Origin: a virus
Lineage: Duplodnaviria; Heunggongvirae; Uroviricota; Caudoviricetes
Direction: 5' to 3' (one strand)
Length of the DNA: 10,801 nt
Virus record (IMG/VR): IMGVR_UViG_2529292726_000024
Span: 1 to 10,801 of that record
Positions within the stretch are counted from its first letter, which is position 1. Each line of letters starts with the position of its first letter. The position numbers were made by a program, and so were the translations under genes. The notes under the pieces were generated by a model. That model was not told the DNA's origin and ran no database searches. It saw only the letters and a list, made by a program, of their open reading frames with translations. Below, piece after piece: positions 1 to 10,801 of this stretch.

Positions 1-223
1 GTAGCATCTCCAGCAGAGTTGTTGGTGTCAGAGCCGGCCTCTCTTTCAACAGAGGAACAAGCATGCTGTCCCACACAGCTTCCAGAGGATCTTTGCGTGT
101 GCGCCAGTGCCGAACACTGTTTTTTGCCCACTCTCCTTTTTCGATCCGACGACCAGAACGGACTGAGATACCAGCCTTCATGGCCGAGATATGCTGAGTT
201 ATACCTTTCTTACGCTGAGTCAT
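1..223 (-). CDS. hypothetical protein, N-terminal fragment (ORF continues beyond window start)
   Basis: Minus-strand ATG at 223-221 opens a frame (MTQRKKGITQHISAMKAGISVRSGRRIEKGEW...) that stays open to base 1; in-frame TAA upstream at 295-293 bounds the start. Absent from the ORF track because it has no stop in the window. Basic N-terminus, no clear Shine-Dalgarno. Function not recognised. Confidence 0.3.
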   Translation of the reverse strand, partial: MTQRKKGITQHISAMKAGISVRSGRRIEKGEWAKNSVRHWRTRKDPLEAVWDSMLVPLLKERPALTPTTLLEML

Positions 224-364
224 ATAGTAACTGACCTGAGAAGTATTGAGCGTCACGCCATTTCCTGTTGGATCATGTAAATGACACTCAGGTTACAAAA
301 CCGGCCAGAATAATCGGCGCCAGGCGGACTGAGTTATTGTCGTCTCATACTCCACGCTTATTTT

Positions 365-1705
365 TTAGGTAACGTCTAAGATTCGCTCAATGAAGCGCAT
401 TTGTTCGAGGTTTTGTTTAACGCGAATGCTGATCCCTCCCTGCTGGTTACGTGAACCAGCAAAGTAGAGACGAGCCTCTCCTTTCGCTTCTTCTTCTTCG
501 GTTTTGTTGATCGTTATTACCAGGTCAGCAATACGTACTTTTTCGATGTTGTCGGCAGCGTGCATCATTGTGGCAACTTCTGACGCGCCACCTTCACGGT
601 TTGTCTGCGATGCCGTGATCCCAGCAACGTTATGCTTGTCATAAAGAGCACGTAAATCGGTGTAGATACTACGAATGTTGGCGCGATCATCACGAAGGTC
701 ATAACTGGCACGCATCAAATCTGCGTAGTCGACAACAACCATGTCAGGCACCATGCCGTTGGCTTTCATGCTGTTAAGCACACGGTCCAGATCTGCCGGT
801 GACATACTTCCTGACGGACGCTCAACAACCCACAAACTACCAATACCCTTCGTAGCTCCCAACTCTGCCAACTTGCGATGAACTTCATCGCGCCGTTCCA
901 CCAACTTGGACATTTCCGTCTCCGACAATCTTGCATCAAAACGGTCGGATAAAATGGTGGTGTGAACCTCCAGCGAGAGATACAGAACATTGTAGCCAGC
1001 AAGTGTTGCGTTTATGGAAAACTCACCCATTGCGGTCGATTTACCGGATTTAGCGAACCCCATGAAGAGCACCATTTCGCGCTTTGCCCAGCCTTTTTGG
1101 TACAGCACCCTATCGAGAAGAGGGAGTCCAGTTGTAATACTGTTTGGTACATACTCCTCTGAAGCCTCATATTCACGCGCTTTCAATCGCTCACTTGCGG
1201 AGGTGTAGTAGTCATAGATTCCGGTCGCTTCGTTCGATCCAATCTGCTGAACCTTGGCCATGATTGCCATCGCCCCCTGAAAGTCGCCTTTCTCTTTCAG
1301 TTCAGCAGCCTTAATCAGAGCATCATCAAACGCTACACTTTTTGCGAAGGTTGATACCTGGTCAACCATGTACGAGGTATCGGACAATTTTTCTGCAAGA
1401 ATGCGCTTAAACGCAGCAACAACATCGGCGAATAGTTCCTCACGGATAGTCTTATCGCGTTTCGCACGCTTAAGCATATCCAGAATTGCAGATGAAGAGG
1501 GCGCGCTCTTGTACATACGGTAATAGCCCGAAACCATATTAACCAATATGGCATTGGCCGCATTGGCAAATTGGCTAGGCACAACCAGATCTCCCGCACG
1601 AGTAAGAAACTCGTGATCACGACAAAAATATGCCGTCAGTCTGTTCTGGAAATCTTCATCAAACTCTTCGGACAGCCCGCGTCCTGTATGGCAAAGTTCG
1701 GTCAT
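365..1705 (-). CDS. DnaB-family (SF4, RecA-fold) replicative DNA helicase
   Basis: 446-aa ORF; Walker A GFAKSGKST; DnaB-like motifs VVVDYADLM (Walker B/H2) and ITASQTNRE (H3); SD AAGGAA 5 nt upstream of ATG at 1705-1703. Family assignment from motifs seen in the translation. Confidence 0.82.
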   Translation of the reverse strand: MTELCHTGRGLSEEFDEDFQNRLTAYFCRDHEFLTRAGDLVVPSQFANAANAILVNMVSGYYRMYKSAPSSSAILDMLKRAKRDKTIREELFADVVAAFKRILAEKLSDTSYMVDQVSTFAKSVAFDDALIKAAELKEKGDFQGAMAIMAKVQQIGSNEATGIYDYYTSASERLKAREYEASEEYVPNSITTGLPLLDRVLYQKGWAKREMVLFMGFAKSGKSTAMGEFSINATLAGYNVLYLSLEVHTTILSDRFDARLSETEMSKLVERRDEVHRKLAELGATKGIGSLWVVERPSGSMSPADLDRVLNSMKANGMVPDMVVVDYADLMRASYDLRDDRANIRSIYTDLRALYDKHNVAGITASQTNREGGASEVATMMHAADNIEKVRIADLVITINKTEEEEAKGEARLYFAGSRNQQGGISIRVKQNLEQMRFIERILDVT

Positions 1706-1748
1706 GTGCTTTCCTTTGTTTTTTAAACAAATTGTTTTCTAGTATTAG

Positions 1749-2489
1749 TTAATTAGATAGGGGATCAATAAACCGCCGTGCTTCTTCCAGTTCTTCTGGA
1801 AAGTGGGCGTAAATAAGGCGCTCTGGAACGATTTCCATTAGCCAGATAGCGGAGAAAATTGCGCGTATGCGCTTGCTGCGAGGGATGGTGCGCAAACGCT
1901 CCAGAATCCACTCAAAATAGCTTTCCTGAATCGGGTTGAACTGCATGTCTCCCATATGCTTAAAGCTAACCAGAGAGTCATCCAGACGGGTTGTTGCGCG
2001 TCTGGCTAATTTCTCTTCAAATATCTCAATCAGTTCTGGCTGCCATAAATGCTGTGGGCGCGGCAGCTTGTCCCACAGCCGTCGTGCAGCTGCGGAAAGA
2101 ACGGTGGAGATAAAGTAGTCGTATGAGCAGCAATAGCGATCCGCAAACTGGCGTGCTTTCCATAGCGACGTTTTATTGGCAGTCGACAACTCCTGATAAG
2201 GCAGACGTTTTAACCCGGTGGTGAACGGAGCTGTTTCAAAGTGTTCGCGACCGTGCGTCAGCATGATATTTGAGTACTGACGTTTGTATGCCTCCGTAAA
2301 AAGACAGGTGGCCATGAGAGGATGCATGTCGCGGTAATCAAACCACTTCGTCTCGAAGAGTTCAGCCTCGTCTTTACAGCGCGACAAACCAATGTTTTCA
2401 GCGACCCACTTGTCCATAACAGCGGTATTCCACTCTGTCATGAAGTCGTACTGGTCGTTGTCGATGGTATCGAAAAAGATTTGGCTCAT
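1749..2489 (-). CDS. hypothetical protein, immediately upstream of the helicase gene (possible replication initiator or helicase loader by position only)
   Basis: Long ORF, 43-nt gap to helicase start, same strand. First ATG at 2489-2487 has SD AGGTGA 5 nt upstream; the track start at 2498 is a GTG. Aromatic-rich, no motif recognised. Confidence 0.6.
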   Translation of the reverse strand: MSQIFFDTIDNDQYDFMTEWNTAVMDKWVAENIGLSRCKDEAELFETKWFDYRDMHPLMATCLFTEAYKRQYSNIMLTHGREHFETAPFTTGLKRLPYQELSTANKTSLWKARQFADRYCCSYDYFISTVLSAAARRLWDKLPRPQHLWQPELIEIFEEKLARRATTRLDDSLVSFKHMGDMQFNPIQESYFEWILERLRTIPRSKRIRAIFSAIWLMEIVPERLIYAHFPEELEEARRFIDPLSN

Positions 2490-2498
2490 GTGGCTCAC

Positions 2499-2591
2499 CT
2501 GGTGGGTAGTTACTTACTTATCACAATGAGCGGATGATAGCGACTGGTGGCAGTTTTTGGAAGTGAAAACGGAAGGGAGTTGTTCTGGTGG
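2499..2591. repeat. three direct CTGGTGG heptamer repeats in the divergent control region (candidate iterons/operators)
   Basis: CTGGTGG at 2499-2505, 2544-2550 and 2585-2591 (spacing 45 and 41 bp); the first overlaps the SD of the 246-aa gene on the opposite strand. None is preceded by G, so none is a canonical Chi octamer. Confidence 0.4.
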
Positions 2592-2714
2592 TGTCTTTTA
2601 AAAGACCTGCTTCCGTATATATTTAATAAGTTACTTATTATTTATATACAGAAACAGGCTCCTAATGGATACCAAGAACAACATAATTTGACTCCAACCC
2701 CAGATGCTATGTCA

Positions 2715-2748
2715 TTGACAGATTTATCAAGGGAGATCATGTTAGAAT
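2715..2748 (+). promoter_or_regulatory. candidate sigma70-type promoter for the 352-aa ORF
   Basis: TTGACA at 2715-2720 and extended -10-like TGtTAGAAT at 2740-2748; spacing 22 bp is longer than optimal, so this is weak evidence. Confidence 0.25.
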
Positions 2749-2778
2749 CAGTGTTTTAGCCTCGTGGATATTGTCACC

Positions 2779-3837
2779 ATGCGCATGAATAGACTTCCAG
2801 GATATGGCCTTCCCGAACTGGCTTTTTGGCCTCAGCCTAAATATGAACGGAATAAATGGTCGATGTTCTGTCTGAAACTCCGTAATGATGGAACCCTTGC
2901 TTGGTATCGGCGATATGTTGATCGTGGTATGCCAAACCACGCTTTTGATGACGACTACGATAACTATCCTGAAGCAAGAAAAGCGGCATTAGAGCTGAAT
3001 AAAAACGTGAGCTTTGACATTGAAAAACTTCCTCTATCTATGTTTCAAAAGAAGTCATTGCGTTTGAAAGTTGACAAAGCACTCAAAGCCAAATCACGTC
3101 TCATGGATGAAGAGCATATAATGCTCAACGAAGCAATTAAGGCACACGCCAACGATCCGCGAGTGACATTAAATGAGTTAATAATTAACCCAGATTACGA
3201 AACTTTGCGTCAACCCCTTTTTGACGTGCTAAGCGAGATGCCTTACTTACATTTTGTTTTTCTTCCCAAATTCCAAGTTTCACTTCAACTCGTTGCTCCT
3301 AACACTTGGGAATGTTCATATAACAACAAAGCTAAGACAGCGAAGATCTGCTACCAAGAACGCATAGCCAGAGGTTTTGGTTTATCAGGTGCTGCACATT
3401 GGGGAAAAACAAAAGCGACTATTCGCTCAATGCTTCTGCCGCGTGCTAACCGGTTACTGCAACTCGCCAGCGTAAAAAGAATGCTGGATGAAGCTCTCAG
3501 GAATGGGCAAAAGGTACTGGTTGTTGGCAACTTTGTTTTCTGGTTTGAGGACAAAAATCAGGTAGGTTGGAGTGTTAAAGTTGCTAGCGAAAGCGAAACC
3601 ACCTCAAGAGGCAATACGCTCTGGAAAGAAGGAACTATCATTTCAAAAAATCACGGTCGAATTGTCGTGCTGCCGTATACAAAAGAAAACGGTAAACATG
3701 TAAAAGGTTATACCAAGAATGCCCCTAACGACGGCAACGCAATTCCGAGACATAAGGATGAGTATGTCGAGTTGCCCTTTGAAATTTTGGATGGTGACTT
3801 GATGTTCAGTCTGTTCGGTGAGCTTAACTACGAATAG
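2779..3837 (+). CDS. hypothetical protein (352 aa from ATG 2779; 357 aa if the GTG at 2764 is used), orphan accessory gene of unknown function
   Basis: Uninterrupted ORF on the strand opposite to both flanking modules; terminator-like hairpin downstream; AT-richer than neighbours by hand count (3001-3060 about 32% GC versus about 45% for 1381-1440 in the helicase). No Walker, HTH, TM or nuclease motif recognised. Start codon uncertain; no strong SD. Confidence 0.6.
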   Translation: MRMNRLPGYGLPELAFWPQPKYERNKWSMFCLKLRNDGTLAWYRRYVDRGMPNHAFDDDYDNYPEARKAALELNKNVSFDIEKLPLSMFQKKSLRLKVDKALKAKSRLMDEEHIMLNEAIKAHANDPRVTLNELIINPDYETLRQPLFDVLSEMPYLHFVFLPKFQVSLQLVAPNTWECSYNNKAKTAKICYQERIARGFGLSGAAHWGKTKATIRSMLLPRANRLLQLASVKRMLDEALRNGQKVLVVGNFVFWFEDKNQVGWSVKVASESETTSRGNTLWKEGTIISKNHGRIVVLPYTKENGKHVKGYTKNAPNDGNAIPRHKDEYVELPFEILDGDLMFSLFGELNYE

Positions 3838-3854
3838 CTTTCATAGAACGAAAT

Positions 3855-3892
3855 ATTTCTAAGGCTGTCCAATGCAGACCAGCCTTAGAGAT
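3855..3892. terminator. bidirectional terminator-like hairpin between convergent genes
   Basis: Stem 3855-3867 pairs with 3880-3892 (core CTAAGGCTG / CAGCCTTAG, 9 perfect bp, extendable to 13 with one wobble), 12-nt loop; T-rich flank on both strands. Lies between the stop at 3835-3837 (+) and the stop at 3900-3898 (-). Confidence 0.45.
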
Positions 3893-3897
3893 TTATA

Positions 3898-4257
3898 TCA
3901 ACCTTTCTTCATTAACTCGCGTTTAATTTCATCGGTACGCATCGTGACATCGGCAGCGGTGATCGCCTCATTCAATTTCACGATGTCCTCGATTTCCTGC
4001 GGTGACTTCTCTGCCAGATGGAAAATGGCTGCTCGAATCACGTCAGAACGAGTGAACTTCTCGAAGCGAGGGATGAACTTCATCATCTCCAGCAGTTCGA
4101 AGTATTCGTCCTCCAGTGACATTGTGCGGCTTTTAATTTTCTCTTTGCCACGAGTCGGGCGTCCCTGTGGTCTGACTGGTTGGCGCAAAGGAGTTGTGTT
4201 CTTAGCCGGTGCATCAGGCTCTTTGCGCTTTGCTAGGTCACCCATTTTCATGGACAT
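3898..4257 (-). CDS. small partition-locus partner protein (ParG/ParB-like centromere-binding protein candidate)
   Basis: 119-aa ORF whose ATG (4257-4255) overlaps the ParA stop (4259-4257) as TAATG; basic, Pro-rich N-terminal tail and short C-terminal domain, typical of small partner proteins of ParF-type ATPases. Assignment is by context, not motif. Confidence 0.5.
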   Translation of the reverse strand: MSMKMGDLAKRKEPDAPAKNTTPLRQPVRPQGRPTRGKEKIKSRTMSLEDEYFELLEMMKFIPRFEKFTRSDVIRAAIFHLAEKSPQEIEDIVKLNEAITAADVTMRTDEIKRELMKKG

Positions 4258-4925
4258 TATTCTTCTTCCTCCAGACTCAACAGATAATCTACAAATTCTT
4301 CAAACTCGGCTTCCGCCTTTTTGTCGCGCTCGCTACCGGTCATTTCAAAGATAGAACGACCAGACTCTTCCGCATCATCATAGACGTTGCGGTTATATAG
4401 ATTGACTGGCGCAGACTCGATTCCAAACGTCTCAACAATCTCTTTAGCCGCCAGAATGCGAGACACTTGTGATGGCAAAGCCGGGCACTGGTTCATGACC
4501 GCGCGGACCTTCACTTTATCGTTTACATTGCGAACATTGTCGATAATAGGATCGATGTCACGTAAAGATTTCAAATCACGACGCTTAGGACGCAGCGGGA
4601 TAATGATAACGTCAGCCATCAGCATCGCTTGTCGCTGAATTTCGGAGTCGAAGCCACCAGCATCTACCACTACAAACTCAGCTCTACCCTGAAGCGATTT
4701 TAGGTGCTTAATGATGTCATCCTGAACGTATGCAAAAGGAATCAGCTCAAGGTCTTCGTTCTGTCGACGGTCTTCACACCAGCTCGTTGTCGTGCGCTGA
4801 ATATCTATATCGGTAATATAAACCTTCTTCTTCTTTTTGACTTTCAGGCAAACGGCAATTTGCTGGGCAACGGTGGATTTGCCAGGCCCGCCCTTTGTGC
4901 CGCCAACCACAAAGATCTTGGTCAT
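4257..4925 (-). CDS. ParA/ParF-family partition ATPase (deviant Walker A)
   Basis: 222 aa; deviant Walker A GGTKGGPGKST near the N-terminus; acidic C-terminus; small size typical of type Ib ParA. Confidence 0.8.
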   Translation of the reverse strand: MTKIFVVGGTKGGPGKSTVAQQIAVCLKVKKKKKVYITDIDIQRTTTSWCEDRRQNEDLELIPFAYVQDDIIKHLKSLQGRAEFVVVDAGGFDSEIQRQAMLMADVIIIPLRPKRRDLKSLRDIDPIIDNVRNVNDKVKVRAVMNQCPALPSQVSRILAAKEIVETFGIESAPVNLYNRNVYDDAEESGRSIFEMTGSERDKKAEAEFEEFVDYLLSLEEEE

Positions 4926-4960
4926 TGGAGAGTTCCCTTTGCGTATATAATTATCGTCTG

Positions 4961-4973
4961 AAACAACTTGTTT
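4961..4973. promoter_or_regulatory. palindrome upstream of parA-like gene (candidate operator/centromere element)
   Basis: AAACAA-c-TTGTTT at 4961-4973, about 36 bp upstream of the parA ATG. Additional inverted repeat GTACGG-N7-CCGTAC at 5105-5123 in the same intergenic region. Confidence 0.25.
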
Positions 4974-5128
4974 TCTTATATGTGATATAGCCTAAATGCC
5001 TACGGCTGCGGTGTAAAGGTTAAATGGTAGGTTGTGATTAACAATTGGCAAACATAGCTTGTATTTGTCTGTTGAAAAAAGTAACAATGACCTCTATATT
5101 ACAAGTACGGTGATATGCCGTACACAAT

Positions 5129-5188
5129 TTGATAATGCACACGTAATGGGCTATAGCCTTTTAAAGTAATTTTTGAGTCGAAAACTCA
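5129..5188 (+). promoter_or_regulatory. candidate promoter and operator of the toxin-antitoxin operon
   Basis: TTGATA (5129-5134), 17-bp spacer, TATAGC (5152-5157); downstream inverted repeat TGAGT-cgaaa-ACTCA at 5174-5188, positioned like an autoregulatory operator. Confidence 0.3.
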
Positions 5189-5243
5189 GTTTGAACAGAG
5201 GAGATTGATGGCCTTCCTACATCACGGCCATCAGGAGGAATAC

Positions 5244-5513
5244 ATGTCAGCACTAAAAAAGCAGCGCATCGATTTGAGATTAACCGATGACGATAAAAGC
5301 ATCATCGAGGAAGCTGCCGCAATGTCTAACCAGAGCATTACTCAGTTTATGGTTAGCAGTGCATCTGAACGTGCCGTGAAAGTTATAGAGCAACACCGTA
5401 GACTAGTTCTGAATGAAGAATCCTGGAATCTGGTTATGGACGCTATAAGCAATCCTCCGGCACCGAACGACAAGCTGAAACGAGCTGCTGATCGTCTGAA
5501 AAGCATGGAGTAG
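5244..5513 (+). CDS. type II antitoxin, DUF1778 (RHH) family, AtaR/TacA/KacA-like
   Basis: MSALKKQRIDLRLTDDDKS... matches the conserved N-terminus of DUF1778 antitoxins as I remember them. SD AGGAGG 5 nt upstream of ATG 5244; an alternative in-frame ATG at 5208 also has an SD. Stop is 7 nt before the toxin start. Confidence 0.8.
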   Translation: MSALKKQRIDLRLTDDDKSIIEEAAAMSNQSITQFMVSSASERAVKVIEQHRRLVLNEESWNLVMDAISNPPAPNDKLKRAADRLKSME

Positions 5514-5520
5514 TTTACTC

Positions 5521-6042
5521 GTGGATAATATAAAGATAGAAATTTTCTCTGGAGAGAAAGATTATGATTTGAATGGTTTTGATTGCGGTGAAGAATCACT
5601 AAATGCCTTTTTAACCAACCACTTAAAAAGGCAGCATGAGGGAAAAATTCTTCGCGCTTATGTGCTTTGCACGAAAGAAGGCAGACCAAAAGTGTTAGGG
5701 TATTACACTTTGTCAGGTAGCTGCTTTGAAAAGGAGTCCTTACCTTCAAGAAGCCAGCAAAAGAAGGTACCTTATCGGAATGTTCCAAGTGTTACTTTGG
5801 GTAGGCTGGCTTTGGACAAGTCCCTTCAAGGTCAAGGATTTGGCTCAATGCTTGTAACACATGCAATGCGCGTTGTGTACAATGCATCTCTTGCTGTAGG
5901 CATTCATGGACTTTTCGTTGAGGCGTTAAATGACAAAGCCAAGGCGTTTTATAAAAGTTTAGACTTTATCCAGCTGGTTGGTAACAACGAGCGTTCTTTG
6001 TTCTATCCTACAAAATCTATCGAAAAATTGTTCGAAGAATAA
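5521..6042 (+). CDS. GNAT-family N-acetyltransferase toxin (AtaT/TacT/ItaT-like, aminoacyl-tRNA acetylating)
   Basis: 173 aa, GTG start; acetyl-CoA-binding motif LQGQGFGSML; conserved FDCGEE and VGIHGLFVEALN segments remembered from AtaT-family toxins; directly downstream of the DUF1778 antitoxin. Confidence 0.8.
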   Translation: MDNIKIEIFSGEKDYDLNGFDCGEESLNAFLTNHLKRQHEGKILRAYVLCTKEGRPKVLGYYTLSGSCFEKESLPSRSQQKKVPYRNVPSVTLGRLALDKSLQGQGFGSMLVTHAMRVVYNASLAVGIHGLFVEALNDKAKAFYKSLDFIQLVGNNERSLFYPTKSIEKLFEE

Positions 6043-6047
6043 TGTAC

Positions 6048-6065
6048 TCCCCTCAAGTGAGGGGA
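6048..6065 (-). terminator. terminator-like hairpin between the converging TA operon and the minus-strand membrane cassette
   Basis: TCCCCTCA (6048-6055) pairs with TGAGGGGA (6058-6065); on the minus strand it follows the stop at 6076-6074 and precedes a U-rich stretch; the plus-strand flank is not U-rich. Confidence 0.35.
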
Positions 6066-6073
6066 ACTTCGCA

Positions 6074-6289
6074 TCACCAACCGCAAACTCTCTCTCCCAT
6101 CGTATTGTGAAAAAGGATTTGGCGTTCGGTTTCTTCGGTCATCACATCATTATTGCTGATATAGATAGGCCCAGCTCCATCGCAGAACAATACGCTGGCG
6201 GTTTGTGGTTTAATGACGCACCCACTTATCATACAACTCACGATGAACGGCAGAAGCATCTTTCTGACGTATTTTATTGCTCGTCTCAT
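6074..6289 (-). CDS. candidate o-spanin-like outer-membrane lipoprotein, overlapping the 3-prime end of the upstream gene in the +1 frame
   Basis: Lipoprotein signal MRRAIKYVRKMLLPFIVSCMISGC with lipobox ISGC (alternative start at ATG 6259). Overlaps the 6210-6461 gene by 80 nt in another frame, the classic overlapped Rz/Rz1 arrangement. Mature part is not proline-rich, so the assignment is tentative. Confidence 0.4.
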   Translation of the reverse strand: MRRAIKYVRKMLLPFIVSCMISGCVIKPQTASVLFCDGAGPIYISNNDVMTEETERQILFHNTMGERVCGW

Positions 6290-6461
6290 TCACCACTTCC
6301 ACTGTGCTTTGAAGTCGTTTTCTGTCTTCCTGTTTTGCCTTCTCTTCCATTGCTCGTCGCGCCGCATTCCCGCCCATCGTGTAAGCGCCGACAAGAACGA
6401 AAAGAACGGCAGCCAGCGTAATCAAAGCAACTTTTAGCTTTGTCATCAGGCTGCCTAGCAT
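6210..6461 (-). CDS. candidate i-spanin-like protein (N-terminal TM helix, charged periplasmic helix)
   Basis: ATG at 6461-6459 with SD AAGGGA upstream; MLGSLMTKLKVALITLAAVLFVLVGAYT is a single N-terminal TM, followed by a charged helical region (AARRAMEEKAKQEDRKRLQ...). Short (83 aa) for an Rz-like protein. Confidence 0.42.
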   Translation of the reverse strand: MLGSLMTKLKVALITLAAVLFVLVGAYTMGGNAARRAMEEKAKQEDRKRLQSTVEVVNETSNKIRQKDASAVHRELYDKWVRH

Positions 6462-6462
6462 A

Positions 6463-7155
6463 TTAGACCATCCCTTTCTGGTGTTTTCTTCCCTGCGACC
6501 AGGCAATGAATCCTGCCACAACAATAGTGGCAATACCGAAGATGATGCGTACTGTATCCCCGCTAGAGATATGACCTTGTGCTTTATCCATAGCAGCGGA
6601 AACCTGCGGCATAACATCGGCCAGCTGCGCCAGACCAATACCTGCTGTAACAGTTGCGCCTGCGGTTTCTTTAGTTACAGGAACAGCCTTCACGGTTTTC
6701 ACCGGCTTAACAACGCCAGCTCGACGCAGACCTTCCTCAATAACTTCTACCGCATACCAGGTGTTCAGCGTTTTTAGCGGGCCTCGGCCATTCTCGTGGC
6801 GAATGATTGCCTCAACCAAAGGTCGAAGGATGTCGTAATCATGCAGATCGATGATCATGTCTGCGGTTACACCAACGGCTTTAGACACCTCATTAATGTA
6901 GGCGTCAGTATTGTTTTCATTCGGCGGTGCCCAACGTTCAATAACTTCACGAATGGTATCGATACTTGAGCCGTCTTTTGCGCGACGTTTGTCGTGGTAG
7001 GTAATTAGAGTCACCGCCAGCGCACGAATCCCCCAAACAGGGTCTTTAAACGTGCAAAAGCGCGGTTCGTCTGGATTCGCAACCAGACCTTGCCACGGTG
7101 ATCCTTTATCAAGATTACCGGGGTTATTATTACGAATGCCTCTCGGAGTCTTCAT
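6463..7155 (-). CDS. tail-anchored membrane protein (C-terminal TM); endolysin-like only by its position in the cassette, unverified
   Basis: 230 aa from ATG 7155 (SD AGGAG 7 nt upstream; the track start at 7182 is a GTG). N-terminal soluble domain with RNNNPGNL, C-terminal TM IIFGIATIVVAGFIAW. No catalytic motif of a known muralytic family recognised. Confidence 0.4.
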   Translation of the reverse strand: MKTPRGIRNNNPGNLDKGSPWQGLVANPDEPRFCTFKDPVWGIRALAVTLITYHDKRRAKDGSSIDTIREVIERWAPPNENNTDAYINEVSKAVGVTADMIIDLHDYDILRPLVEAIIRHENGRGPLKTLNTWYAVEVIEEGLRRAGVVKPVKTVKAVPVTKETAGATVTAGIGLAQLADVMPQVSAAMDKAQGHISSGDTVRIIFGIATIVVAGFIAWSQGRKHQKGMV

Positions 7156-7168
7156 CCTTGATCTCCTG

Positions 7169-7492
7169 TTATTGCAGTCCACTTTTTACGCCATACGCGG
7201 CTAACCCCAAAAGCAGTGCGGTAATAATGAACGACGTTATTTTAGAAACAATGCCGCCAAAGAACCCACTTGAGATGGAATCTAACCGGTTAAGGAGTTT
7301 GTCCAGATTGGAGTGTTGAATACTATGTTGCGCCGGGGTCATATCACCAAAGTAGGTTTTCAGCTGATCATTGACCTCCTGGCCAATTTCTTCACGTAGC
7401 TCTTTACCTAATTTGCCAACAACCTCCCGAGCAACGATCGCGGCAATACGCTCAACTTGCTCTGTTGTAACGCCCGCCATCTCGTTCGACAT
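7169..7492 (-). CDS. small tail-anchored membrane protein (holin-like by position, unverified)
   Basis: ATG at 7492 has a strong SD GGAGG 5 nt upstream (alternative ATG at 7504 lacks one). About 85-aa charged N-terminal region then a single C-terminal TM ITSFIITALLLGLAAYGV. Stop is 13 nt before the next gene. Confidence 0.4.
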   Translation of the reverse strand: MSNEMAGVTTEQVERIAAIVAREVVGKLGKELREEIGQEVNDQLKTYFGDMTPAQHSIQHSNLDKLLNRLDSISSGFFGGIVSKITSFIITALLLGLAAYGVKSGLQ

Positions 7493-7573
7493 GTTTTCCT
7501 CCATGAAAAGTCAAATCGGGATGGCGGATTTATATCACATTTCACCCTTTTGTTGTAGGTGTGTACTTACCTA

Positions 7574-7807
7574 TCATTCAGCATTGCAACCGATTGATGA
7601 GAAAGCACCTACTCCAACCCATCGCCAGTTATAGATGCTACCCGCTTTGTATAAGGTATAGTCGTTCACTTTTTTAACAGCATATATGGGTATGACTGTC
7701 TCCTGTCCACCAATGATAGCTTCACCATAACATATAGGTGTCGGCAATTTCTGGCAGCCAGTAAGAGAGAGAACAACAGCTATTGTTAGAAATAATCTTT
7801 TCATCAT
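7574..7807 (-). CDS. small lipoprotein, 77 aa (candidate Cor-like superinfection-exclusion lipoprotein)
   Basis: Signal peptide MMKRLFLTIAVVLSLTGC with lipobox LTGC; starts 4 nt after the stop of the 202-aa gene; size and position after the tail-fibre genes recall Cor-type lipoproteins of lambdoid/N15-like phages, but sequence similarity is not verified. Confidence 0.55.
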   Translation of the reverse strand: MMKRLFLTIAVVLSLTGCQKLPTPICYGEAIIGGQETVIPIYAVKKVNDYTLYKAGSIYNWRWVGVGAFSSIGCNAE

Positions 7808-7814
7808 TTACTCA

Positions 7815-8423
7815 TCAGTTATACAGATTTCTATTTATTACCGGTACTCTGCCATTTACGCTAAAACTATGGCCGCCATTAAGTTGGTTTACGAATATCG
7901 AGCTAACAGTATTTCCATATGCCGCATATCCATAAACCATTGTCATGGCTCCGCCCGGTACTGGAACAGCGAACACATTCGCATATGTTGGGATTATCGC
8001 TGGAGGGTAATCAAAAACATGCCCTCCAGAGCTGTTCCACTCCGTATTATTAAGAAAGGTAAATGAAAGTGGGATATTTGCCGTATTATAGATTTCCTCC
8101 CCTTGTGCATTGAAAAAACTCATGCCCCAAGTTTCTTTTTTGGCTATACCTTTCGAAAATACGTATATCGTGGCACTAGAGTCGCTACCCTGACCTCCGA
8201 AACTGTAAATCACCTGGTTGTTACGCACTATTCTGTTGGCTATTAATGAAACAGCTTTCGAATAGGCAACAAAAATAATCGGTGAACGATCTGGAGATAT
8301 TTTGGTGTTAAACTCTGTTCCGCCGGACAAAGAAACAACCTGCTTTCTCTGAAAAACGATAGGAGACAAAGAAGGAGACATCCAGACCTTCCCGTCAGAT
8401 CGATATATCTTGCTTCCGTACAT
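7815..8423 (-). CDS. hypothetical protein, 202 aa, Gly/Ser/Asn/Tyr-rich, probably beta-rich
   Basis: ATG at 8423-8421 overlaps the stop of the upstream gene as TAATG (translational coupling). No TM segment or catalytic motif seen. Confidence 0.55.
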   Translation of the reverse strand: MYGSKIYRSDGKVWMSPSLSPIVFQRKQVVSLSGGTEFNTKISPDRSPIIFVAYSKAVSLIANRIVRNNQVIYSFGGQGSDSSATIYVFSKGIAKKETWGMSFFNAQGEEIYNTANIPLSFTFLNNTEWNSSGGHVFDYPPAIIPTYANVFAVPVPGGAMTMVYGYAAYGNTVSSIFVNQLNGGHSFSVNGRVPVINRNLYN

Positions 8424-8677
8424 TATTTTTGAAAAACCAATATGTTTAAATTACCACTAGCTCCAGACCACGAAATGGTATTTCCAGAAACCGTAAGACT
8501 TGTGTACTTTCCATTGGTTACGTCCATTATGTAATAGTCGATTCCCAATCCCGCCTCAACCTCATATGTTCTACTTCCTGAACCAGAGGGAGTAAAATAA
8601 TCGAGGTAATAAACAGGGGCCAACGCATTGACCATCTCCTGTCTTGATGGCGACCAAACCTGTGCACCATAGCTCAT
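8423..8677 (-). CDS. hypothetical protein, 84 aa
   Basis: ATG at 8677 with SD AAGGA 7 nt upstream; first gene after the tail-fibre stop; coupled to the 202-aa gene. No motif recognised. Confidence 0.5.
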   Translation of the reverse strand: MSYGAQVWSPSRQEMVNALAPVYYLDYFTPSGSGSRTYEVEAGLGIDYYIMDVTNGKYTSLTVSGNTISWSGASGNLNILVFQK

Positions 8678-8702
8678 AAATATATCCTTATACTTTTAAG
8701 CA

Positions 8703-8725
8703 GGGGCTGGTTTAGCTCCAGCCCC
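8703..8725. other. GC-rich hairpin between the tail-fibre gene and the downstream cassette
   Basis: GGGGCTGG (8703-8710) pairs with CCAGCCCC (8718-8725), 7-nt loop. U-rich flank only on the plus strand, so it is not a convincing terminator for the minus-strand operon; possibly an RNA-stability or processing element. Confidence 0.3.
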
Positions 8726-8737
8726 GATTGAAGTTGT

Positions 8738-10534
8738 TTATTCTTTAGGTGAATTTAACTTCGTTTCAAGCTCCTCAACCCTTTTGGTCAATTGCTGAAT
8801 ATGATGAATGAGTGGTACAACCAAACGCTCATACATCACTCCTTCAGCGACCATACCATTTGAGGAAATACCTTCTGGAGAATCATTATTTGTTGGTTCA
8901 CGCCAATGGACATATTGCGGGGCAATCTCACCAACCTCTTCAGCAATAAGGCCGTAATACCCCCAATCCTTTCGGTCACCTCGACAAATTGAACGATACC
9001 AAACAGGTCTTAATGACAAAAGTTCATCAGCATATCGATCTTGTAATGTTTCAATATCCTTTTTATAGCGCCTTGAAGACGTTGAACGCCAAACTGTATT
9101 GATACCTGGGTTTGGATCAATGTACATATTGGCACCGCTAGTAGTTGTGCCAATATCCCATATAGCAAACCCTCCACTACCGCCTGATTTGACAACCAGT
9201 GTTTCAGCAACAATATCCAGGTTGCCACTATAGCCTGTCAGTGATGATCTGCTTGCATAGGAACTTAGAAGGTTTGCTACCTCTGTTTTCGTGTAAGCAT
9301 TAAGGTTAGCCGCAGTCAAAGTTATATCGGCAGAGCCATCAAACGCCACACCAGCAATTTTCCTTGCTGTCTGCAATTTTGTGGCGGTTGCGGCATTACC
9401 AGTAGTGTTCTGATTACCAGTGGCATTCACACCAGGAATGGAGTCCCTTGATGTATATACCTGCGCCCACGCTGACCATGCCGCAACTGTGTAATCTCTT
9501 CGGGAGCGAATGAAAACCGGCGCATGTGCACCGCTCGTACCACTCCAGCCAATAAGCAACTCGCCCTCACCAGCAGCACTCGCACCTTTCATGTGCAATA
9601 CGTTGCCATACGTGGTCGGGTAGCTATTGTTGTACACCTCATACATTTGAATGCCAGCAGTGCCTTGAGTAGAGCCGCTTAACGCCGTAACTCGGCCACG
9701 AGATACCAATGTATTAATATTGATATCGCCTGAACCATCAAACTTAACACCATTGATGTTTCTCGCTGTTTGCAACTTCGTAGCTGTTGAAGCATTACCG
9801 TTCAAACTACCATTTACGCCACCAGTCACATTTAGTCCATTACCAATTGATACAGCACCGCTGGTATTATTAATTGTAATAGGTCGCAAACCGTTCCATG
9901 AACCTAATGTGTCTCCTGATGCTGTTAGCAGGAAATATGTGTTCGCCCCATCATTACGGATAAAGAACCCAAAGTTACCGTAAGCAATGCGGAAACCATT
10001 TGCATATTTTGAAACGATCTCACCAGAAGACGTTAACCCTCCAGATAATGTGCCACCTGAAAGCGGTAATGCTCCTACATCAGAAGCTGTTGGTTTGTTT
10101 CTAGTGTTATACGCTCTGCGCCATCCAGGTGAATAACTTGAGCCATTAGACACATAGATAAACTCCGCATTAGTGAGTGCACCAGAGACATTTGTCGTAG
10201 TGGCCGTTGTTATTCGAATGGTGTAATTGTTGGTATTATTGCTGAATACTTCTATCACAGCACCCGCCAGTGGAATAATGCCACAACCAGTTTCACTGTC
10301 TGGTATGGATGCACTATTCGCATACGCCCATGCACAACGAGCGATCCATGCTTTCGTACTGAATGCCCCGTTATTTTGCAACAAAGTAACTAACTGGGCT
10401 GTCGTTATTGCCCCTCCATTACTTCCTGTAGTTAACCAACCAGTAGGAGATGCCGGGCAACCTATATTTGCTGGCGACAAGGCAATATTTGCCGAGCCGT
10501 CAAACGACACCCCATTGATAGTACGCGCAGTCTG
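8738..10534 (-). pseudogene. tail fibre protein with C-terminal S74 intramolecular-chaperone domain, 5-prime truncated by IS2 insertion
   Basis: Three copies of the tail-fibre repeat LQTAR-INGV-FDGS; C-terminal domain with SSRRYKKDI (S74 auto-cleavage consensus) and ...VPLIHHIQQLTKRVEELETKL. The reading frame runs into the IS2 left end at 10535, so the first ~45 codons of the 643-aa track ORF derive from IS2. Confidence 0.8.
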
Positions 10535-10801
10535 TAGACTGCCCCCCTGAATCTCCAGACAACCAGTATCACTTAAATAAGTGATAGTCTTAATACTAGT
10601 TTTTAGACTAGTCATTGGAGAACAGATGATTGATGTCTTAGGGCCGGAGAAACGCAGACGGCGTACCACACAGGAAAAGATCGCAATTGTTCAGCAGAGC
10701 TTTGAACCGGGGATGACGGTCTCCCTCGTTGCCCGGCAACATGGTGTAGCAGCCAGCCAGTTATTTCTCTGGCGTAAGCAATACCAGGAAGGAAGTCTTA
10801 C
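10535..10801 (+). mobile_element. IS2 (IS3 family), left end, partial (runs off window)
   Basis: Sequence from TAGACTG at 10535 through the insC start matches the IS2 left end as I remember it (near-identical, one or two mismatches in the terminal repeat). Boundary good to about 3 bp. Confidence 0.85.
10626..10801 (+). CDS. insC: IS2 transposase OrfA (InsC), N-terminal part
   Basis: [58 protein letters not shown] is the recognised InsC N-terminus; SD GGAG upstream; ORF continues beyond the window. Confidence 0.85.

Follow-up and report, generated by a model that had tools for sequence, protein, structure and literature searches.

A phrog_2500 protein encoded before the DnaB-family helicase of an SSU5-like phage-plasmid as a possible helicase-loading or initiation factor

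Described helicase loaders and the protein under study

Helicase loading is a task for which unrelated proteins have been swapped repeatedly, with DnaC, DciA, lambda P, gp59 and the G39P/VdhL proteins as examples. Against this background we consider a protein of 246 amino acids (aa), in the following called X, which is encoded directly before the DnaB-family helicase of an SSU5-like phage-plasmid. The DNA analyzed, referred to as the window, is a stretch of 10,801 nucleotides (nt) from a virus of the Caudoviricetes (IMG/VR record IMGVR_UViG_2529292726_000024, positions 1 to 10,801). Both genes are located on the minus strand exactly where an earlier note, made from the sequence alone, had placed them: the helicase gene at 365-1705 and the gene of X upstream of it at 1749-2489.

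In the phages lambda (O/P), P22 (gp18/gp12) and SPP1 (G38P/G39P/G40P) an accessory initiation protein comes first and the helicase follows, an order which is shared by the locus presented here. Initiators of this type possess iterons inside their own gene and bind DNA via a winged helix; X differs from them in that its structural model is strandless and its gene is free of internal repeats. A second point of comparison is the gp59/gp41/gp61 system of phage T4, as the helicase of the window is nearest to gp41 among solved structures and the corresponding primase weakly matches the gp61 chain. Genes 59 and 41 are not neighbors in the T4 genome. In size gp59 is similar to X, a non-enzymatic-looking helical protein of roughly 240 aa, and it is likewise all-helical without an ATPase, yet no likeness in sequence or fold was detected between the two, and X is acidic in SSU5-like elements.

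The closest precedent for the type of argument made here is VdhL1 and VdhL2, phage-derived and non-homologous loaders which were inferred from synteny and stimulate DnaB (PMC11087808). Like X, these proteins and SPP1 G39P belong to families of unknown function and of phage origin, with copies in bacterial chromosomes (PMC11087808). The VdhL proteins share a G39P-like fold whereas the model of X has no such match, and VdhL and G39P are biochemically supported while X is known from its sequence and a model.

We propose, with a rough probability of 0.4, that X could be a non-homologous helicase-loading or replication-initiation factor. The proposal is based on three points and nothing else: its conserved position, the fact that no loader is annotated in the examined parts of SSU5, and the VdhL precedent. 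If it is correct, X extends a known functional class by one more loader family, whose fold is new, and opens a way to study how SSU5-like phage-plasmids replicate in lytic growth; these elements are carriers of extended-spectrum beta-lactamase genes in Enterobacteriaceae. If X is a regulator or unrelated to replication, what is left is an ordinary "hypothetical protein" within a replication module of a familiar type.

Gene order around X

Over a compared stretch of 4 kb, the window is 100% identical to the Escherichia coli plasmid p503046_111 (CP025888.1, 111,957 bp). Many E. coli phage-plasmids as well as the phages Cyrano and PhiR41_1 are about 98-99% identical to it, and Salmonella phage SSU5 is about 80% identical. 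From these identities it follows that the source element is an SSU5-like phage-plasmid.

To sample gene order we used 80 diverse viral contigs, which were found through X proteins 26-38% identical to the query; a first scan of viral contigs gave only close SSU5-like loci, and it was repeated from a distant sequence to gain diversity. The helicase gene follows X on the same strand within 2.5 kb in 74 of the 76 contigs with enough flank, and slightly farther away in the remaining two. Where a contig extends far enough, the helicase is nearly always followed by a primase gene. The slot in which the gene of X is found was described in the earlier note as the one usually taken by an initiator or helicase loader. 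This placement stands as far as position is concerned; a likeness of X to a loader or initiator, be it in sequence, in fold or in the form of iterons, was not observed.

Cultured phages encoding X have genomes of roughly 105-120 kb and fall into SSU5-like, RHEph10-like (Rhizobium), nickie-like (Pseudomonas) and Stenotrophomonas phages. The order in each of these groups is PhoH, X, sometimes a small open reading frame, DnaB-like helicase, primase and ligase. The succession of X and helicase is repeated in RHEph10, nickie, BUCTxx99 and two bacterial contigs of roughly 105 kb; SSU5, RHEph10 and nickie have been described as distant relatives (Pfeifer et al., PMC7969092). Where a cultured-phage group has a helicase of at least 36% identity, it nearly always carries X as well; in Xanthomonas phage JGB6 the slot contains unnamed open reading frames. 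The small open reading frame between X and the helicase encodes 69-89 aa in nickie-like and Stenotrophomonas phages (L085 7713-7982, L086 7640-7849); it has a weak, sub-threshold match to Hfq in nickie and does not occur in SSU5-like elements.

The two genes of the window are separated by a spacer of 43 nt (1706-1748, minus strand), in which a ribosome-binding site, AAAGGAAAG, can be read. As a terminator scan returned nothing between them, X and the helicase are probably co-transcribed. About 80% of the SSU5 genome was examined for a helicase loader and none is annotated there, while the annotation includes SSB, a recombinase, exonucleases, a polymerase, a ligase and a plasmid Rep-like gene.

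The helicase itself (446 aa, ATG start) has matches in Pfam, PHROGs and the PDB. Its assignment to the SF4/DnaB-like group, made previously from the translation, holds: DnaB_C of Pfam is matched above the gathering score (E 5.5e-13, 49.3 bits versus a cut-off of 27, residues 190-424), phrog_19 "DnaB-like replicative helicase" is matched with E 1e-87, and DnaB profiles align. There are additional Pfam matches to AAA_25 and a KaiC-type ATPase, and Walker A (GFAKSGKST) and Walker B (VVVDYADLM) motifs can be read in the translation. The closest PDB sequences are 8due, 8dtp and 8g0z (E 6e-12, residues 55-410), which are T4 gp41 primosome entries. The NCBIfam alignments to phage_DnaB and DnaB span residues 30-371, with 50.8 bits versus a cut-off of 498.65 for the former (TIGR03600) and 38 bits versus an equivalog cut-off of 385 for the latter (TIGR00665). 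The N-terminal part is aligned only weakly, from residue 29-30 in NCBIfam and from residue 55 with gp41, and the Pfam match starts at residue 190. Since gp41 is the nearest solved relative and the NCBIfam scores are far below the cut-offs, the protein is a distant, phage-type and gp41-like member of the DnaB family and not an orthologue of bacterial DnaB. The helicase is ordinary, and the type of module to which it belongs is well known.

The primase gene of the source plasmid (L003 8686-9798) lies just outside the window. Its product matches phrog_47 "DNA primase" with E 7e-65; Toprim_2 of Pfam is found at the cut-off and DNAG_N just under it. In the PDB it matches 5guj (E 6e-6) and chain H of 8dvf (E 1.6e-3), the latter being gp61, the primase chain of the T4 primosome entries. 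With a zinc-binding region (CPVCGS...C) that can be read in the translation, the predicted product is a DnaG/gp61-type primase separate from the helicase.

This arrangement leads to a mechanistic model. The region would represent the front of a lytic replication operon, consisting of a promoter region, X, a hexameric helicase of the gp41/DnaB type and a primase of the DnaG/gp61 type. The helical core of X would bind the DnaB-family helicase and help to place it on the DNA at initiation, and in phages the helicase served by X would be the phage's own.

The same gene order allows for another explanation, namely that X has a different conserved early function, such as host takeover, anti-defense, a partnership with PhoH or an accessory role in recombination, and merely travels with the replication block. 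Position alone links X to DNA replication, and PhoH is encoded at most 1.5 kb upstream of X in 67 of 72 viral contigs. In SSU5-like elements, however, variable cargo has replaced everything upstream of a palindrome (see below), including PhoH, while X, helicase and primase stay together, which argues that X is tied to the helicase and not to PhoH. Anti-defense genes are moreover usually variable, whereas X keeps a fixed position across the sampled clade, and it has no match in PADLOC. We therefore regard this explanation as quite unlikely, although islands with defense cargo and without replication genes, described below for a long form of the family, are in its favor.

Protein family, upstream DNA and long form

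X is 246 aa long if translated from the ATG at 2489, and 249 aa long if translated from an alternative GTG at 2498. The ATG and the codons following it are kept in 14 aligned relatives while the preceding bases are variable, and RefSeq annotates the same product, 246 aa long, in a plasmid that is 99.4% identical. The protein is acidic with an isoelectric point (pI) of 5.8. Tryptophan, phenylalanine and tyrosine account for 14.2% of its residues, in agreement with the previous description of X as rich in aromatic residues and without a motif that could be named, and searches with the single sequence gave no match in Pfam, NCBIfam, PADLOC or the PDB sequences. The sole label on X comes from PHROGs: residues 4-244 of the 249-aa form match positions 1-247 of 248 of phrog_2500 (E 3e-113), a family of unknown function. 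The family carries no annotation, and the long chromosomal form with its cysteine cluster is not described in its entry. Our literature search returned nothing on the protein.

A word-indexed search for X retrieved 33 clusters, all from SSU5-like elements of Enterobacterales. The exhaustive profile search retrieved 767 clusters (50% identity) at E<=1e-3 and 486 at E<=1e-10, with most members having a length of 220-260 aa. We sampled 90 relatives, and all of them, the long form included, match phrog_2500. When the same 90 sequences were compared to Pfam, no known helicase-loader, helix-turn-helix (HTH) or winged-helix family was found, and the only hit was a fusion with HNH_3. The fusion occurs in a metagenomic relative (P0097), where an N-terminal HNH_3 endonuclease domain precedes the phrog_2500 core, and it probably represents a homing-endonuclease fusion. 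The known loaders (DnaC/DnaI AAA+, lambda P, DciA, T4 gp59, G39P/VdhL) gave no NCBIfam match for X either. Against the PDB sequences neither the single-sequence nor the profile searches returned anything under E 0.29, and a profile search with an alignment of the long form returned nothing.

The conserved positions of the family are mainly aromatic and structural-looking (KWFDYR, WKARQxADxxGxPYDF, LPRPxQL). Residues R113, D117 and Y123 are invariant, and a catalytic signature is not evident among the conserved positions.

For the prediction of the fold we used AlphaFold2 with an alignment of 90 sequences, modeling a monomer. The resulting model has a predicted local distance difference test score (pLDDT) of 92.4 and a predicted template modeling score (pTM) of 0.90; it is all-helical, with 13 helices and zero strands. 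It supersedes an earlier model from 20 close relatives (pLDDT 75.7), for which Foldseek had found nothing under E 0.3 in the PDB and BFVD. A Foldseek comparison of the final model with the PDB gave a best E of 2.3 and template modeling scores (TM) below 0.3 throughout; the entry of DnaB with lambda P (9oa1) reached only E 6.3 and TM 0.12. As both Foldseek and the profile searches of PDB sequences were empty, the predicted fold of X has no detectable solved relative. Known loaders and initiators, gp59 included, are present in the PDB. Being large, unannotated and confidently modeled, the family is ready for direct testing.

The most conserved stretch of X, WKARQxADxLGxPYDFF (helices 103-117 and 123-136), is HTH-like by our own reading. 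This leads to a further explanation, in which X recognizes specific DNA sequences. It would then serve lytic replication as an origin-binding initiator, or control transcription of the replication operon through the conserved region upstream. In lambda, P22 and SPP1 the origin binder is placed directly before the loader or helicase, and X is the first gene past a conserved non-coding block and a palindrome. On the other hand, the 90 members include no HTH or winged-helix family, the model has no fold match to DNA-binding proteins, and the SSU5-type protein is acidic.

The alignment of 14 SSU5-like loci defines a conserved 5' region of the X-helicase operon at 2490-2605 (minus strand) with the invariant blocks TCCCTTC, GTT, ACTTCC, CAGTCG and TAAGTAAGT. 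A scan for consensus sigma-70 sites over 300-2900 returned no promoter, so a possible promoter upstream of X (TTCCAA-17 nt-TATCAT) is named by our own reading only. The region contains three copies of the heptamer CTGGTGG on the plus strand (2499-2505, 2544-2550, 2585-2591). The whole window contains five copies compared to 0.87 expected, a number reached by none of 200 shuffles. It had been suggested that X might bind these heptamers. They turned out to be lineage-specific: In the alignment of the 14 loci they decay to a ..CCAG core, and of the 56 distinct upstream regions compared in SSU5-like elements, 31 lack the exact heptamer altogether and not one has three exact copies. A non-conserved heptamer is hardly to be expected as the cognate site of a protein that is conserved, and a role as conserved iterons was rejected. 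Chi sites were also considered and dismissed, because no G precedes any of the three copies.

Iterons or tandem repeats were found neither in nor near the gene of X, with only chance repeat pairs in 300-2800, and without repeats an origin inside the gene as in lambda O is ruled out. The gene and its surroundings are likewise devoid of AT-rich, origin-like features. Together with the poor conservation of the heptamers this speaks against X as an origin binder.

The conserved region is followed by an AT-rich palindrome of 53 nt with arms of 26 nt (2606-2658), which emerged from a repeat search, RNA folding and conservation. The predicted RNA hairpin has a free energy of -32 kcal/mol (z -8.65) and is followed by TCTTTT on the minus strand; its arms are kept in 55 of 56 distinct SSU5-like relatives. 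For most relatives, SSU5 included, nucleotide homology stops at the palindrome at about 2660, so that the conserved replication block ends and variable cargo begins there. The palindrome is probably a minus-strand terminator insulating the replication operon, and possibly an operator or protein-binding site as well. Its center, AATAAGTAACTTATT, is similar to a sequence near the start of X (2507-2521).

About 18 of the 139 listed relatives of X represent a long form of 320-366 aa, which is encoded in alphaproteobacterial chromosomes (L087-L095, L181-L184). Beyond the core, this form has a C-x13-C-x2-C-x5-C cluster and a basic RERxRRxRAK tail, and judged by its sequence this additional module looks DNA-binding. 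In their spacing the cysteines are probably similar to clusters of the 4Fe-4S "iron staple" and WhiB types. A tyrosine integrase adjoins the long-form gene in most loci, and a tRNA-Arg(CCG) is found near it in three. The cargo often comprises defense genes of the restriction-modification, MmeI-type, GmrSD and PDC-S44 kinds. The loci look like very small integrative islands in which only the integrase and the long-form protein are shared. Four of them encode a divergent HTH-like partner of 156-180 aa (KKRDxAYY...SVRQAAxKAGLIHLP), located at L088 1273-1746, L089 6308-6778, L182 6400-6888 and L184 6297-6839; the copy in L089 has no match in Pfam, PHROGs or PADLOC.

A cysteine cluster with an arginine- and lysine-rich tail is typical of DNA binders, and the position beside integrases with a divergent HTH-like partner in four loci is reminiscent of a regulatory or replication cassette of an island. 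Both observations are in agreement with a DNA-binding X. Taking them together with the missing HTH families, the acidic SSU5-type protein, the missing iterons and the poor conservation of the heptamers, we consider a sequence-specific DNA binder to be rather unlikely.

If X is a helicase-loading or initiation factor, the long form can be accommodated: its four-cysteine module, holding Zn or Fe-S, and its basic tail would bind DNA, while the X core would recruit the host helicase for the integrative island. In its broadest version the proposal would make phrog_2500 a new kind of loader or initiation adaptor with a fold unmatched in the PDB, serving the gp41-type helicases of a widespread clade of phages of roughly 110 kb and of clinically relevant SSU5-like phage-plasmids, with a long form through which minimal alphaproteobacterial islands with an integrase would seize the helicase of their host and, once excised, replicate. 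This broad version is doubtful.

Several observations weigh against a role of X in helicase loading or initiation. The syntenic phages are all siphoviruses of roughly 110 kb from a single broad clade, and their genomes are collinear; the adjacency of X and helicase may thus partly reflect ancestry. X has no likeness in sequence, profile or fold to any solved structure, known loaders included. Charge varies within the family, with pI values from 5.3 to 9.7. Finally, no related DnaB-like helicase or primase was found in the DNA of up to 7 kb on each side of the long-form genes, which means that the core of the family can work without a cognate phage helicase.

Insertion element and further genes of the window

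The gene directly after that of the helicase encodes a primase of 370 aa (SSU5_040) both in SSU5 and in E. coli relatives free of the insertion described here. In the source plasmid the two genes are separated by an IS21-family insertion sequence (IS) of 2410 bp (L003 9940-12349), which encodes IstA (499 aa, Mu-transpos_C_2) and IstB (251 aa, IstB_IS21 with E 9.5e-62) and has imperfect terminal inverted repeats with 12 of 14 matching ends. The right end of the element, with the 5' part of istA ending at about 256, occupies positions 1-349 of the window (minus strand); it interrupts the replication module and is not part of it. The hexamer CTCCAC occurs as a single copy in the uninterrupted plasmid L002 and flanks the element on both sides in L003. 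In the window this 6-bp target-site duplication is found at 350-355, within a hairpin which relatives have between their helicase and primase genes. The insertion point is located 9 bp past the helicase stop codon inside this hairpin, and homology to uninterrupted relatives restarts at 350.

That no primase is visible in the window, as the earlier note had stated, is correct, and the reasons are the window end and the insertion. The priming arrangement, regarded there as unclear, is resolved: the primase exists, and it is displaced by 2.4 kb through the IS21-family element that separates it from the helicase. The insertion may be polar on primase expression, which would make the phage-plasmid defective for lytic replication.

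Beyond the palindrome a variable slot begins. At 2764-3837 (plus strand) it contains a divergent gene of 357 aa, which belongs to phrog_22329, a PHROG without an assigned function, and has no match in Pfam, NCBIfam or PADLOC. This gene is found in E. coli and Klebsiella relatives, and SSU5 has a DUF2971 gene instead. A ParA-type partition ATPase (222 aa) and then a protein of 119 aa (phrog_5111), presumably the centromere-binding partner of ParA, are encoded at 3898-4925 on the minus strand. The plus strand carries a plasmid-addiction module at 5205-6042, consisting of a TacA-like (DUF1778) antitoxin and a GNAT acetyltransferase toxin. A search of the whole window against Rfam gave zero RNA families.

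The window also encodes a lysis block and, at 8738-10669 on the minus strand, a tail-fiber gene whose product has a T4 Gp34 trimerization domain and a C-terminal Peptidase_S74 intramolecular chaperone domain. This gene continues from a longer fiber gene in relatives.

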